Shown one piece after another: positions 1,101 to 41,991 of a stretch of DNA of 64,000 bases. Below the pieces are notes generated by a model. It saw only the letters and a list, made by a program, of their open reading frames with translations. It was not told the origin of the DNA and did no database searches. Source of the stretch: Hydrolagus affinis (Eukaryota). Position 1 is the first letter of the stretch. The number at the start of each line of letters is the position of its first letter. Position numbers and translations under genes: made by a program. The stretch is from positions 1 through 64,000 of the forward strand of contig JAAILG010000015.1 in assembly GCA_012026655.1 (NCBI GenBank), read 5' to 3'.

Positions 1101-2613
1101 GTCCCAAGTACCATTTGCAAATCACTGCTCTCTGCTTAGGCGATCATCAGTGTTATTTGGGCAGTGGTGGTTGGTACAGTGTTCCAGACATATCACCACA
1201 TTTCAAGATGCTTCACTAGTTATTATACAGTAGATATATATATATATAATATGCATATAAAGGAGCCTTATTCAACCAACCCCGCCTTCGGCTGCTATTT
1301 GCAGCAATAACAGTCTCTCCTGAACATTGTCAGAGAAAAATCTAAAACTCCACGTTCCTGCCAGACAATAACGATGAGATGCTAATGTATGACTTGACCC
1401 TGATTCTTCTAATGTGAACGTTCGCTTGTCTTCACTGTGCGGTTCCTATGCAGATCTAGAATTAGTACAGTTTTAAGGTTACTTAAGTGTCTTGGAGTCT
1501 GTATTGATGCCGGTTAAAATATTAGATTGCAGCTCCGTTGACTGCTAAATAATCCCAAATTGTGTGTATTCGGTTGCGTTCATTCATTGGAAATTTTTAC
1601 AATTCATAAAGCAGTTCTCTTTTTTAAAAAAATTATGTTAAGATACACACATTCGACAAGACAAACCCCTTGTGTAATATAGTAAATTCTGACTGTACTG
1701 TACAGTAGTTTTGCATTCATTTCCCCCCAGGGTATTAGGTTGGATTTCTTGAATCATTCAGTGTTTAAAATCTTGATTATTGTGTTCGCCGTGTGTGTGT
1801 GACAAGAGTAGCAATGTTTACTTTATAATGAGTACAGTGCTCTGTATTGTATTCTTAACAAACCCTACAGGATCAATATGCACCATTTTGCATGAGTAAA
1901 CAGGATTGCAGTATAAAGGACATGTAGAAGTACAGTGTTGGAATATAATTCTACAGTTTTCTTTTCTCTTCAGGCTTGTATCTGGCAGCACTATTGTACT
2001 CCAGTGTTTCTGATGCATATATTTGAAGATATGCCTTGTGAGATTTTAGTGCCAGATTCGGATTTATAATCACATCCCAATCCAGACTGTTTAAAAGGTG
2101 TGATTAAATTCATTATCACCATAGGGTTAATCTGGCTTGGCTCCATTTTATCTCATTGCCCTCAGTGTTATTAGTTTCAATGCCACAGTCAATCAGGGAA
2201 CCTTCGCTGCTGTAGGTAGGTTAGGTGACTTATTTCAGGAGTTCCTTGGCCTGCTAACTCCAAAGTAAAATACGATTCAGAAAATCCCTTGGGCCGTTTC
2301 TATACAATGGCTATGCACGCCTCCGAATGCCTGGGTCGATCCCAAACTATTCGCAACAGTTCATGGTTTTGTCAAGTTAATTTGGCAGTCACATGATTAA
2401 GGATGATCTGCCTGGTGTTAATGTGATCAATATTATGGATGTGAGTGATTTTCCCCTCCTTCCAGGTTCTTCACAACCAATTGCACCAATTCTAGTTATG
2501 TTAATTTCAATCTTTCTTTTTTTTAAAAAAAAGTTACAAACCTTTCCCACCCGCTTTGTTTAACTGTAGCTGATCTTAATTTCATCCACCATTAGATTTA
2601 AACCCCTTCCCCG

Positions 2614-2877
2614 AAAAAACGCAAAACACTGCAGATGCTGGAAATCTAAAACGAAAGCAGAAATTGCTGGCAACGCTCAGCAGGTCAGGCAGCATCTATG
2701 GAGAAAGGAAAAGTGAGTCAATGTTTCGGGTCCACGACTCTTCGTCAGAACTGAAATCATGTAACCGTTCTGACGAAGGGTGGTGGACCCAAAACGTTGA
2801 CTCGCTTTTCCTTTGTCCATAGATGCTGCCTGACTTGCTGAGTGTTGCCAGTGATTTCTGTTTTTGTTATTAGATTT
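2614..2877. mobile_element. Palindromic Penelope-like-element terminal repeat remnant (inverted pseudo-LTR pair) with minimal hammerhead motifs
   Basis: Arms ~2642-2751 and 2767-2877 are reverse complements around a 15-nt spacer. Each arm contains CTGACGA-stem-(G/A)AAAC. Flanking direct repeat attagatttaa at 2591-2601 and 2869-2879. PLE assignment rests on family knowledge. Confidence 0.72.
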
Positions 2878-3099
2878 AACCCGCCTTGTTAGTAAATTAT
2901 TATTTAAAAAGAAACTCATTTGCAAAAATAACTCTGAGTTTCTAGCCATATCCTGAGTGGAATGCACAAAGCTGAACATCTGTTGTTTCTTATGTTCTGT
3001 TGTAAAGTGAAAATTTAAATGCAACCAAGATTATTTTTAACCATCCGCTTATAAATGAATCCTTTACATAAAAGATTAAGTCAATGATGAGTTGAATTG

Positions 3100-5070
3100 T
3101 ACCTGTAGTGTAAGTAATATTGTAAAACTTTCATCCTGCACACATAATGAGTAGGAATTTGAATTTATGGGCAAAGACTCCCTGTTCCAAAAAGTACATT
3201 GTAAAATCTTCATTGGATATAGGATTAGAGTATGGATGCAGTGAGATAAATATCTTCAATTCAATACTGTCCGAAGGGGCAAACATATTCCACATTGACA
3301 TCCACTCCAGAGACATCAAACCATTGAGTGTTAAGTAAATTACCGAAGCAAACTCTTAGAGATTACTCCCTAGTGAGGATCTCAAATGGTTTAAGATGCT
3401 GAGCCACTCTCATAAACCAAAATTTGCAACTCGACATTTGGACAGTTATTTCCCCCAGTCTTACTCATTATTCTGATCATTATTATTATAATAATCCTTA
3501 AGTTTGATAATATGTCTTTCAACAAGAACTTATCAATAACAGACCACAGTTCCACTCATCTTTTATATGGCATCCTTAAGCACACTGTGATGCTACCCAG
3601 CGTTAAGGGCGCTATATAAATGCGAATTGTTGTTGTAATGTCGTGAGTGTTTTCATGTCAGGAGGACATTTCAAAGTGCTTCACAGGCTAAAGTAATAAA
3701 TTGTTGTGACTATTTTTGTTGACAAACTTAGTTTTACGGTTAGTTGTCTGTTTGTCTGTTGTTGTTTGGCATAGAGATCCTACAGAGTTACAAGACAGAA
3801 ATCATGTAGTTTGTAATACTTGCTGAGATCAGAAGTCAATATATGTAGAGCACCCCAATCTTTCTAGGAGGTCAATGCATCCAAATTTCGTATCAGGCAG
3901 AACGATATGGGGGGAAGATAAAGCCCACACTGATTATTCCATCTGCCCTTGATTTGGCATCCATATTCAGTTCTTTCCTTTTCTAAGGAAATTCTGTTTG
4001 TATGTTTGGAGGCAACACCCCAAATGAGAAGGATCCCAACTACAACAAAATTACATTTGTTTAGCGCCTTTTGCATTGGGAGGATAACAAAATCAATTGA
4101 GGAAGGATTCACCTTGAGTATGGAATTGTGATGTATGGAGTTTAAAGTCATTGGCCTCCATACCATAGAAAATCCAAGAAATATACATAATTCAGTGAGG
4201 TCATGAGCAATTTGGGGAACTTGAATTCTCTGATCTGTACTGAACATCATCCTCCAGTTAAAATGGAAAACTTGAGTGACACACGGGAGTTAAGGATGTT
4301 GCAGGGACAAATTACTATGTATTGAAACTAGTCTGTACAGAAACTGCTGCAAACCAGCTATTAGTGAGCTAAATAATATGAATCGTCCAATTTGTTGAAG
4401 GAGTTCATGACGAGGACTATAGCGCCCTTCACATGTGGTAGCGTTTTGGAGCGCTTTACCCACCAAATTAATTGCAACAGTAAAACCCTTCCGAGTTGGA
4501 CTATAAATAATAGAGGCATTGTGATCTTTTGTTTGCATATTTGATGACCAGTAAATATGTAAGTAAATTCTGGAACCTAGATTCAGTGAGAAAGCCACTT
4601 CTGATGTCAATCAACACACTCCAGTCATTCAATAGAATAATAATCTTCAAAGAATGCCTTGCAATTGGATGGTGACAAATGGAGCGCAACCTTTATCTAA
4701 GAATGAGTGAAAATACAAAGCAAATAATAATGAATAGAGGATCATCTCTCTAGCTGAGAATCCTTCGATACTTGAAATGTTATGTCCTTAGATTCCAATT
4801 CTAGAAAACCTCATTGGGCTGATCAATGGATCCTAATCGTTCAGGTTTATTGTGCATTTAAAGGCATGTACTGGAGTCTAGCTATCACATGAACCAACTT
4901 GGTTCTTCGGTTTCCAGAGAGTTTTTTCAATGATGGATGAAGAATTTTCCTGAAGTGACTGGCAAAACATTAAGTCCTTGTTTAAAGGTGTGTTTACAGT
5001 AGCTGAACAAATGTTGACCATCATGTTCCTACCAGTGCACAAATACAATTGCAATGATATTGCCGAGCCT
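3100..5070 (-). mobile_element. Highly decayed L1/Tx1-type LINE ORF2 (AP endonuclease + RT), interrupted by younger inserts
   Basis: Minus-strand peptide relics occur in the expected order: MVNICSA (~VNIYAP, ~5010), HAFKCTI (~GDFNC, ~4860), FS...SRI...KDHNA (~SDHNA, 4510-4600), LEWMSMW...YSNP (RT, 3220-3315). Many stops and frameshifts. Confidence 0.5.
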
Positions 5071-40068: not shown

Positions 40069-41991
40069 ATGTTGAACAAGATGACATTGCATCCACAGCA
40101 GATGATGATAGGTCCAAAGTTTAACAGGGCCATATTCGACCCCTTGTTTGTGCTGCTGTTGGCTCTTCAACTGCTGGTGGTGGCTGGTCTGGTCAGAGCT
40201 CAGACCTGCCCGTCTGTGTGTTCCTGTAGTAACCAGTTCAGCAAAGTGATCTGTACGCGACGTAATCTCCGAGAGGTGCCAGATAGCATCTCCATCAACA
40301 CGCGCTACCTGAACCTGCAAGAAAACGGGATCCAGGTCATCAAATCCGACAGCTTTAAGCATTTAAGGCACCTGGAGATTTTGCAGTTAAGTAAGAACCA
40401 CATCCGACAGATTGAGGTCGGGGCCTTCAACGGCCTGACAAACCTCAACACCCTGGAGCTGTTTGACAACCGCCTTTCCACCATCCCCAGTGGAGCTTTT
40501 GAATACCTATCGAAACTGAAAGAGCTGTGGTTGCGGAATAATCCAATTGAGAGCATACCCTCGTACGCTTTCAGTCGAGTCCCTTCGCTTAGAAGATTAG
40601 ATTTAGGCGAACTGAAAAGGCTGGAGTACATCTCGGACAGAGCCTTTGATAGCCTCTCCAACTTGAGGTATCTGAACCTGGGAATGTGCAACCTGCGCGA
40701 TATCCCGAGCCTCATGACTCTGCTGAAGCTGGAGGAGCTGGAGCTGTCGGGGAACCGTCTCTCCCAGATCCGGCCGGGCTCCTTCCAGGGCCTGACGAAC
40801 CTGCAGAAACTGTGGATGATGCATGCTCAGATTCAGGTGATTGAGAGGAATGCCTTCGACGACCTCCAGTCCCTAATCGAGCTGAACTTGGCGCACAATA
40901 ACCTGACTCTGCTGCCTCATGACCTCTTCACCCCACTCCACCACCTCGAGCGCGTCCACCTGCATCACAACCCGTGGAGTTGTAACTGTGATATCCTGTG
41001 GCTCAGCTGGTGGCTCAAAGAGATCGTGCCCTCCAACACAACCTGTTGTGCTCGCTGCCACACGCCCCCTAATTTAAAGGGCAGCTACATTGGGGAACTG
41101 GACCAGAATAAGTTCAACTGCTACGCACCGGTTATCGTCGAGGCCCCTACGGACCTCAATCTGACCGAAGGGATGGCCGCAGAGTTGAAGTGCCGGGCGT
41201 CCACCTCCATGACGTCGGTGAGTTGGATTACCCCGAACGGCACCATAATGACTCACGGAGCCTACAAAGTGCGGATCTCGGTGCTTAACGACGGCACATT
41301 AAATTTTACTAATGTGACGGTCCAGGACACGGGGCTGTACACGTGTTTGGTGAGTAACTCTGCAGGGAACACCACGGCTTCGGCCACGCTCAACGTGACG
41401 GCGACGGAGAACAGCACCTTCACCTACTTCACTACGGTCACCGTGGAGTCCATGGAGCCATCGATACAGGTACACACGAGCGACGACAAGTTCAGGCCCA
41501 CGCCGTTCAGCGACTGGGAAACGACCTTTGTGACCACTTCCCTGACTCCTCGGAGCACAAAGACGACAGAGAAGACGGCCACAGTGGCCATCACCGACGG
41601 GGGGGACAACATCATGCCCGGCCTGGATGAGGTGATGAAAACCACCAAGATCATAATCGGGTGTTTTGTAGCCATCACGCTGATGGCGGCTGTGATGTTG
41701 ATCATTTTTTACAAAATGCGCAAGCAACACCACCACCAGAATCACCACGCTCCCATCAGGACCATCGAGATCATCAACGTGGAGGAAGAGATCGCGCGAG
41801 GCACTGCCGTGGAGAGCCACCTGACGATGCCCGCCATAGAGCACGAGGATATGAACCATTATAACTCGTACAAAGCACCGTTCAACCATACCACCACAGT
41901 AAACACCATAAACTCAATACACAGCTCTGTGCATGAGCCATTATTGATGCGAGTGAACTCTAAGGACAATGTGCAAGAGACACAGATCTAA
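40069..41991 (+). CDS. LRRC4C: Leucine-rich repeat-containing protein 4C (netrin-G1 ligand, NGL-1); single coding exon, 640 aa
   Basis: Uninterrupted ORF. Long signal peptide [49 protein letters not shown] ([16 protein letters not shown]), LRR array, LRRCT (NPWSCNC...CCARC), one Ig domain (LKCRA...YTC), Thr-rich stalk, TM helix ([20 protein letters not shown]) and C-terminal PDZ-binding ETQI. The N-terminus and cytoplasmic tail match LRRC4C rather than LRRC4 or LRRC4B. Confidence 0.98.

Follow-up and report, generated by a model that had tools for sequence, protein, structure and literature searches.

Head-to-head ends of a Penelope-like element as the probable origin of a hammerhead-bearing palindrome in Hydrolagus affinis

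Near the start of the window (the whole stretch of 64,000 nucleotides of Hydrolagus affinis DNA that was analysed), two minimal hammerhead ribozyme motifs face away from each other in a palindrome, which raises the question whether this palindrome is a mobile element in its own right or the product of another element's insertion. The original prediction favoured the former and described a non-autonomous, ribozyme-bearing palindromic retroelement in the probable intron of an LRRC4C gene. A single-ORF LRRC4-family gene of 640 amino acids is found 37 kb downstream of the palindrome (40069-41991, plus strand), with LRRC4C as its best match (PDB 3zyj, E 1e-240; LRRC4B, E 3.3e-228). The palindrome itself, in our judgement, probably consists of two head-to-head, hammerhead-bearing ends of an autonomous Penelope-like element (PLE) inside one 14-bp target-site duplication (TSD), which would have arisen in what was likely a single insertion, with both cut DNA ends priming reverse transcription. 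It was likely built afresh at the site and not copied as one palindromic element.

The inverted repeat is formed by two arms of 102 nt each (2650-2751 and 2767-2868) that are 88% complementary and separated by a gap of 15 nt. The whole unit spans 255 bases (2614-2868) and is asymmetric, the left arm being longer by about 33 nt. This long arm (2614-2752, minus strand) is the 5'-truncated pseudo-LTR (pLTR) end of a Neptune/Nematis-type PLE, with 80-86% identity to the full arm found behind GIY-YIG ORFs. The additional 33 nt or so correspond to the PLE tail (2614-2649, minus strand), which is delimited by the family alignment and by the bimodal 3' ends of the family, runs into the ORF in autonomous copies, and in the window copy reaches the distal 3' site (about +133, counted from core C3). 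The short arm (2767-2868, plus strand), defined by the inverted repeat and the family alignment, is the same pLTR end without the tail and stops at the proximal 3' site at about +100. Between the arms lies a central spacer (2753-2766) that is copy-specific and represents junction filler. The unit is flanked by a 14-bp direct repeat (2591-2604 and 2869-2882, both given on the plus strand; 93% identity), which the TSD statistics of the family identify as a TSD, and about 9 nt of filler (2605-2613) separate its left copy from the unit. The first bases of the right TSD copy also resemble the element's next bases, possibly a trace of priming microhomology. The palindrome proposed originally is thus real, although the arms of 110 bp and the extent of 2642-2877 assigned to it need correction, as the tail reaches outside these coordinates and positions 2869-2877 also begin the TSD. 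Each window arm diverges by 6.9% from the family majority, and the locus is a decayed insertion without sign of function.

Both minimal type I hammerhead motifs were located where they had been predicted, at 2767-2802 on the plus strand and at 2752-2716 on the minus strand. Each carries the distinct core lesion foreseen for it (G12>A and G16.2>A, respectively), and each has one helix II mismatch besides. Judged by sequence, both copies are predicted to be inactive, in keeping with the earlier expectation that they are dead: an intact core together with helix II and a palindromic helix III was present in 13 of 86 arms of the family, and neither window arm was among them. The majority sequence of these 86 arms retains the core boxes CUGANGA and GAAA, one extra nucleotide before helix II (between 9 and 10.1), the G10.1-C11.1 pair, a 4-bp helix I, and palindromic positions 15.2-16.2, which is the layout given for the minimal hammerheads of metazoan PLEs (PMC4209133). 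The assignment to the minimal type I hammerheads of PLE pLTRs therefore stands. The same source also notes minimal hammerheads paired on opposite strands at distances of about 100-700 bp, whereas only 21 nt separate the two cores here; further differences are a helix II of 5 bp and a predicted GUU cleavage triplet, and the motif is known here from its sequence.

Covariation of the helices, which had also been anticipated, is real but limited, and is best read from the alignment as one compensatory event between subfamilies and not as many. Among 93 copies with A at position 10.1, the partner was T in 24 of 26 copies of one loop type versus 10 of 55 of the other (Fisher p 1e-10; counted by hand, with 12 copies of other loops left out). 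In one hammerhead subfamily the basal pair of helix II is accordingly A-U instead of G-C, and three of its members (L192, L194, and L195) have also changed a G-U pair of helix I to A-U, so that helix I is fully Watson-Crick. The same variant was also seen in loose ends of the runs X1 and X2. Minimal hammerheads have a dimer requirement, as reviewed in PMC6765202. One transcript of the unit comprises one motif and its complement, and since the motifs occupy opposite strands, no tandem dimer is possible within one transcript. Near the predicted cut site, at +25 to +33, 10 of 32 5' ends were counted (p 0.049; 9 of 31 and p 0.09 when one internal deletion is omitted), which amounts to a marginal excess.

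The arm comprises the final 100-140 nt of a PLE pLTR together with the tail, and it occurs both behind and before the ORF of that element. Among 20 weak-scoring GIY-YIG loci that were fetched, 15 contain the arm in sense orientation, 293-875 nt past the start of the GIY-YIG domain; two of the other five belong to another GIY-YIG family and three have no arm. The 30 top-scoring GIY-YIG loci also belong to another family, and the arm was found in 0 of 30. This second family (L031-L060) shows long open stretches in several copies (e.g., L033, L034, L036, and L047), and its 3' regions, devoid of the hammerhead arm, pass into hexamer repeats of the telomere type or into a 10-bp satellite. A CX4CX2C linker precedes the GIY-YIG domain in L064, L070, L071, L075, and others of the arm-bearing kind. 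Such a CX2-5CxxC linker is given as characteristic of the Neptune and Nematis clades (PMC8557442), and, judged by it, the parent is a PLE of Neptune/Nematis type.

The parent ORF has a Pfam GIY-YIG match that passes the cut-off (E 1.9e-5), and one locus (L075) preserves the succession of tail, broken ORF with RT-like motifs, GIY-YIG domain, and pLTR. The RT piece gives a Pfam RVT_1 match below the cut-off (E 0.018), with RT-like motifs in broken frames; its atlas neighbours at 0.96 have RVT_1 in 13-45% of their members, and a PDB search with it produced chance matches only. The link of the arm to an element with RT and GIY-YIG domains, and the existence of longer copies bearing them, had been proposed from the palindrome, and the partner was found in the form of a GIY-YIG plus RT-like ORF. 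No intact parent ORF was found among the copies sampled. The ORF-linked copies belong mostly to a sister subfamily, with the variants of the window in some only (L066 and L072). Of 25 loci containing the start of the ORF, seven reach the start of the hammerhead, all of them beginning at -2 to -6 and none extending into an upstream UTR. Four of the copies with pLTR and ORF start (L203, L204, L205, and L212) have a common upstream flank, which indicates one insertion duplicated within a larger repeat, and the seven loci count as four independent events. The first likely ATG of the parent would be situated after the tail.

The family is large. Searching the genome with its own palindrome yielded 5,815 candidates, 40 of which were scored, and exact matches numbered 996 for a hammerhead 23-mer and 3,439 for a 24-mer further downstream, with none for the reversed controls. 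Two samples of 89 copies each were picked by exact motif in contig order, with nine loci common to both. The window copy itself and one of the pair L092/L093 were left out of these samples, and L173 and L185 were left out of the palindrome/arm set as duplicates. The former pair (G000:C46) consists of the same insertion with its flanks twice, 37 kb apart and inverted, which may result from local duplication or be an artefact of the assembly. An inverted partner, ranging from the tail only to full length, accompanies 38 of 89 and 49 of 89 arms in the two samples. Within 400 nt, 51 of 89 arms of the first sample lack such a partner, and full palindromes with two hammerheads make up 8 of 89 copies in the second. 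The sampled copies grade from solo arms through tail-only inversions (e.g., L098, L111, and L290-L292) and partial inversions to full palindromes, all colinear with the end of the autonomous element. In 43 palindromes the spacer between the cores measures 6-51 nt, and none of the 903 possible pairs is identical. A long arm is paired with a short one in 37 of these 43, and in 8 of 13 in a subset picked by the centre alone.

The ends of the copies are informative as to how they were made. Their 5' ends accumulate just before the core, at -6 to -2 in 45 of 89 copies of the first sample and at -7 to -1 in 36 of 89 of the second. A further apparent pile-up, at -34, reflects the point where a reference copy stops and was disregarded. 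A spliced leader was considered as a cause of the 5' pile-up and rejected, as the copies have no common upstream sequence and often retain a genomic AG or CAG (48 and 26 of 87, respectively). Non-templated bases at -5 are G in 11 of 22 cases, for which a cap-derived G and a fold-back of helix I are both adequate explanations. A TTAAAA box lies 33 nt before the core in four of five long copies checked, and the bases at the helix I start of the copies presumably fit an initiator-like motif. In raw reads and contigs the arm is covered about equally on both strands, and no molecule starts, ends (including at the cut site), or splice joints were seen there; these sequences stem from many dispersed copies, perhaps of another organism, and were used neither for nor against any reading. 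The 3' ends are bimodal, at about +100 and about +133, a distance of about 33 nt. Of the pairs in which both arms could be classed, 24 of 27 in the first sample (Fisher p 7e-5) and 35 of 37 in the second (p 5e-8) have one arm ending at each site. A TSD was present in 34 of 62 copies, compared with a mean of 1.6 and a maximum of 6 in mismatched-flank controls; this count omits 27 of 89 copies with a long upstream extension or unclassified ends. TSD length varies from 8 to 16 bp and is mostly 12-14 bp.

These features agree with what has been published for insertions of EN+ PLEs, namely an inverted 5'-truncated pLTR, a tail of 30-40 bp at one end, and a TSD (Pen2a_Av, PMC3846280; PMC8557442). 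The window unit resembles them in its head-to-head pLTRs, one-arm tail, flanking TSD, and parent with a C-terminal GIY-YIG domain and a putative RT domain. It differs from rotifer Pen2a_Av in being a minimal case without an ORF between the pLTRs, in a TSD of 12-14 bp versus 8-10 bp, and in that many copies have the same fixed 5' endpoint in both arms. The steps by which PLEs generate inverted pLTRs and tails are described as still undefined in PMC8557442.

The preferred origin by priming from both cut ends starts from the finding that the arm is the element's pLTR end, which also precedes its ORF. The RNA would start where the 5' ends pile up, at approximately the first nucleotide of helix I of the hammerhead. 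The GIY-YIG nuclease would make a cut staggered by 12-14 nt, after which the two target ends would prime at different sites, one at the distal site (about +133, including the tail) and one at the proximal (about +100). On the 5' pLTR of the RNA, each cDNA would then run only 100-140 nt before reaching the end of the RNA, and the two cDNA ends would finally be joined with filler or by microhomology. Tail-only inversions are what such twin priming predicts. In vitro, an anole PLE cuts and extends both DNA strands, and its reverse transcription begins at two internal positions that delimit the tail (PMC11167929).

From genomic products alone, double priming is not distinguishable from fold-back of a single cDNA, in which the same parent would supply the first arm while the second would arise when the first cDNA primes itself, or else on an antisense template, before being joined to the other target end. 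We regard fold-back as a serious but distinctly less probable account. Self-priming on an antisense template was preferred by Arkhipova et al. 2013 for head-to-head pLTRs (PMC3846280), and fillers often repeat neighbouring element sequence. In addition, the two arms of a copy share variants in excess: subfamily-diagnostic bases coincide at three of five columns (p about 1e-5), and 10 of 85 private variants and 29 of 74 CpG decays are shared, against 0.27 expected, which fits one template, fold-back, or later gene conversion. Finally, 11 genomic copies (L315-L325) join the antisense arm end to +30, filler-free, via 3-nt helix I microhomology, and the reversed pattern occurs in none. These junctions fit fold-back, but they likewise fit the joining of two cDNAs or joining to the cDNA of a ribozyme-cut RNA with its 5' end at +29. 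What fold-back leaves unexplained is the opposite use of the two fixed 3' sites and the tail-only inversions whose inner end lies near +90 to +110. Double priming may even be extended to a more ambitious reading, which we put forward tentatively and consider doubtful: the stubs would form a genome-wide record of PLE integration, with both target ends primed, one per fixed RNA site, with RNA starting at helix I, and with the 11 exact junctions joining a full-length cDNA end to a cDNA ending at the ribozyme cut site. If true, these 11 junctions at +30 would show minimal hammerhead cutting in vivo.

The element proposed originally, a palindrome transcribed and retrotransposed whole by PLE enzymes, could account for the TSDs of the units and for the same long-plus-short layout in 29 of the 30 best-scoring loci, a sample picked by likeness to the query. 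It is nevertheless unlikely, as the spacers of different copies are never identical, full palindromes are a minority in the motif-chosen samples, and over half of the arms in the first of these lack an inverted partner nearby. The 100-bp hairpin of its RNA would moreover bury the ribozyme: the long hairpin has a folding energy of -184 kcal/mol compared with -51 kcal/mol for the halves folded separately, and a transcript through the unit is predicted to form one long hairpin that hides both ribozyme copies. Spread as a unit was therefore not borne out. Very unlikely, too, is a short single-arm, SINE-like source RNA, running from the hammerhead start to the tail, that would feed most stubs in place of the 5' end of a full-length RNA. 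The stubs do vastly exceed the ORF sequence (3,439 exact 24-mer matches), and the summed contig depth, which is not a copy number, drops more than 100-fold just past the tail; yet ORF-containing copies begin at the same base, the stubs are colinear with the ORF-linked ends, and internal initiation alone accounts for short products (PMC11167929). A MITE, that is, a non-autonomous DNA transposon, would be short, palindromic, and high-copy as well, but it is scarcely credible given the unequal arms, the variable TSD of 8-16 bp, and the solo arms, and the linkage to GIY-YIG and RT-like ORFs already refutes it.

Among better-known relatives, Poseidon of Anolis carolinensis (PAc, PMC11167929) is comparable in that its RT initiates at two internal sites, which delimit the tail, and both DNA strands are extended, as established in vitro for PAc, and in that its hammerhead precedes these sites by about 100-140 nt. 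In contrast to PAc, the parent here has the CX2-5CxxC linker of Neptune/Nematis type, and while the PAc hammerhead overlaps the ORF start, the first likely ATG here would come after the tail. Non-LTR retrozymes (10.64898/2026.07.22.740005; PMC7229834) are alike as non-coding, PLE-derived carriers of type I hammerheads; according to the former source, they form head-to-tail tandem arrays, whereas the copies here are solo or inverted. Classification as a retrozyme was rejected, as the window contains one inverted pair and the sampled loci are solo or inverted, with no head-to-tail tandem units. Our literature search returned no paper on such miniature palindromes, and Repbase, Dfam, or paper supplements may list such families. 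The family provides thousands of natural products for testing how PLEs make inverted pLTRs and tails.

The family also scatters long dsRNA-forming hairpins across the host genome. The RNA hairpin of the palindrome in the window, which had been foreseen in case of transcription, reaches -192.7 kcal/mol (z = -28), and 0 of 200 shuffles folded equally well. Annotators could mistake such palindromes for microRNA precursors or MITEs, although they are neither. A search of 2000-3600 with Rfam covariance models, suggested originally as a check of the ribozymes, gave no hammerhead match even at E values up to 10; the window copies are mutated and devoid of loop III. Rfam hairpin (miRNA) matches, including mir-3202, stayed below the gathering score and were dismissed as a product of the palindrome; the mir-3202 match at 2694-2824 scored 51.9 bits against a cut-off of 90. 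Elsewhere in the window, a pair of 25-nt inverted repeats (3592-3616 and 4418-4442), 801 nt apart and 80% complementary, possibly marks the ends of a small DNA transposon.
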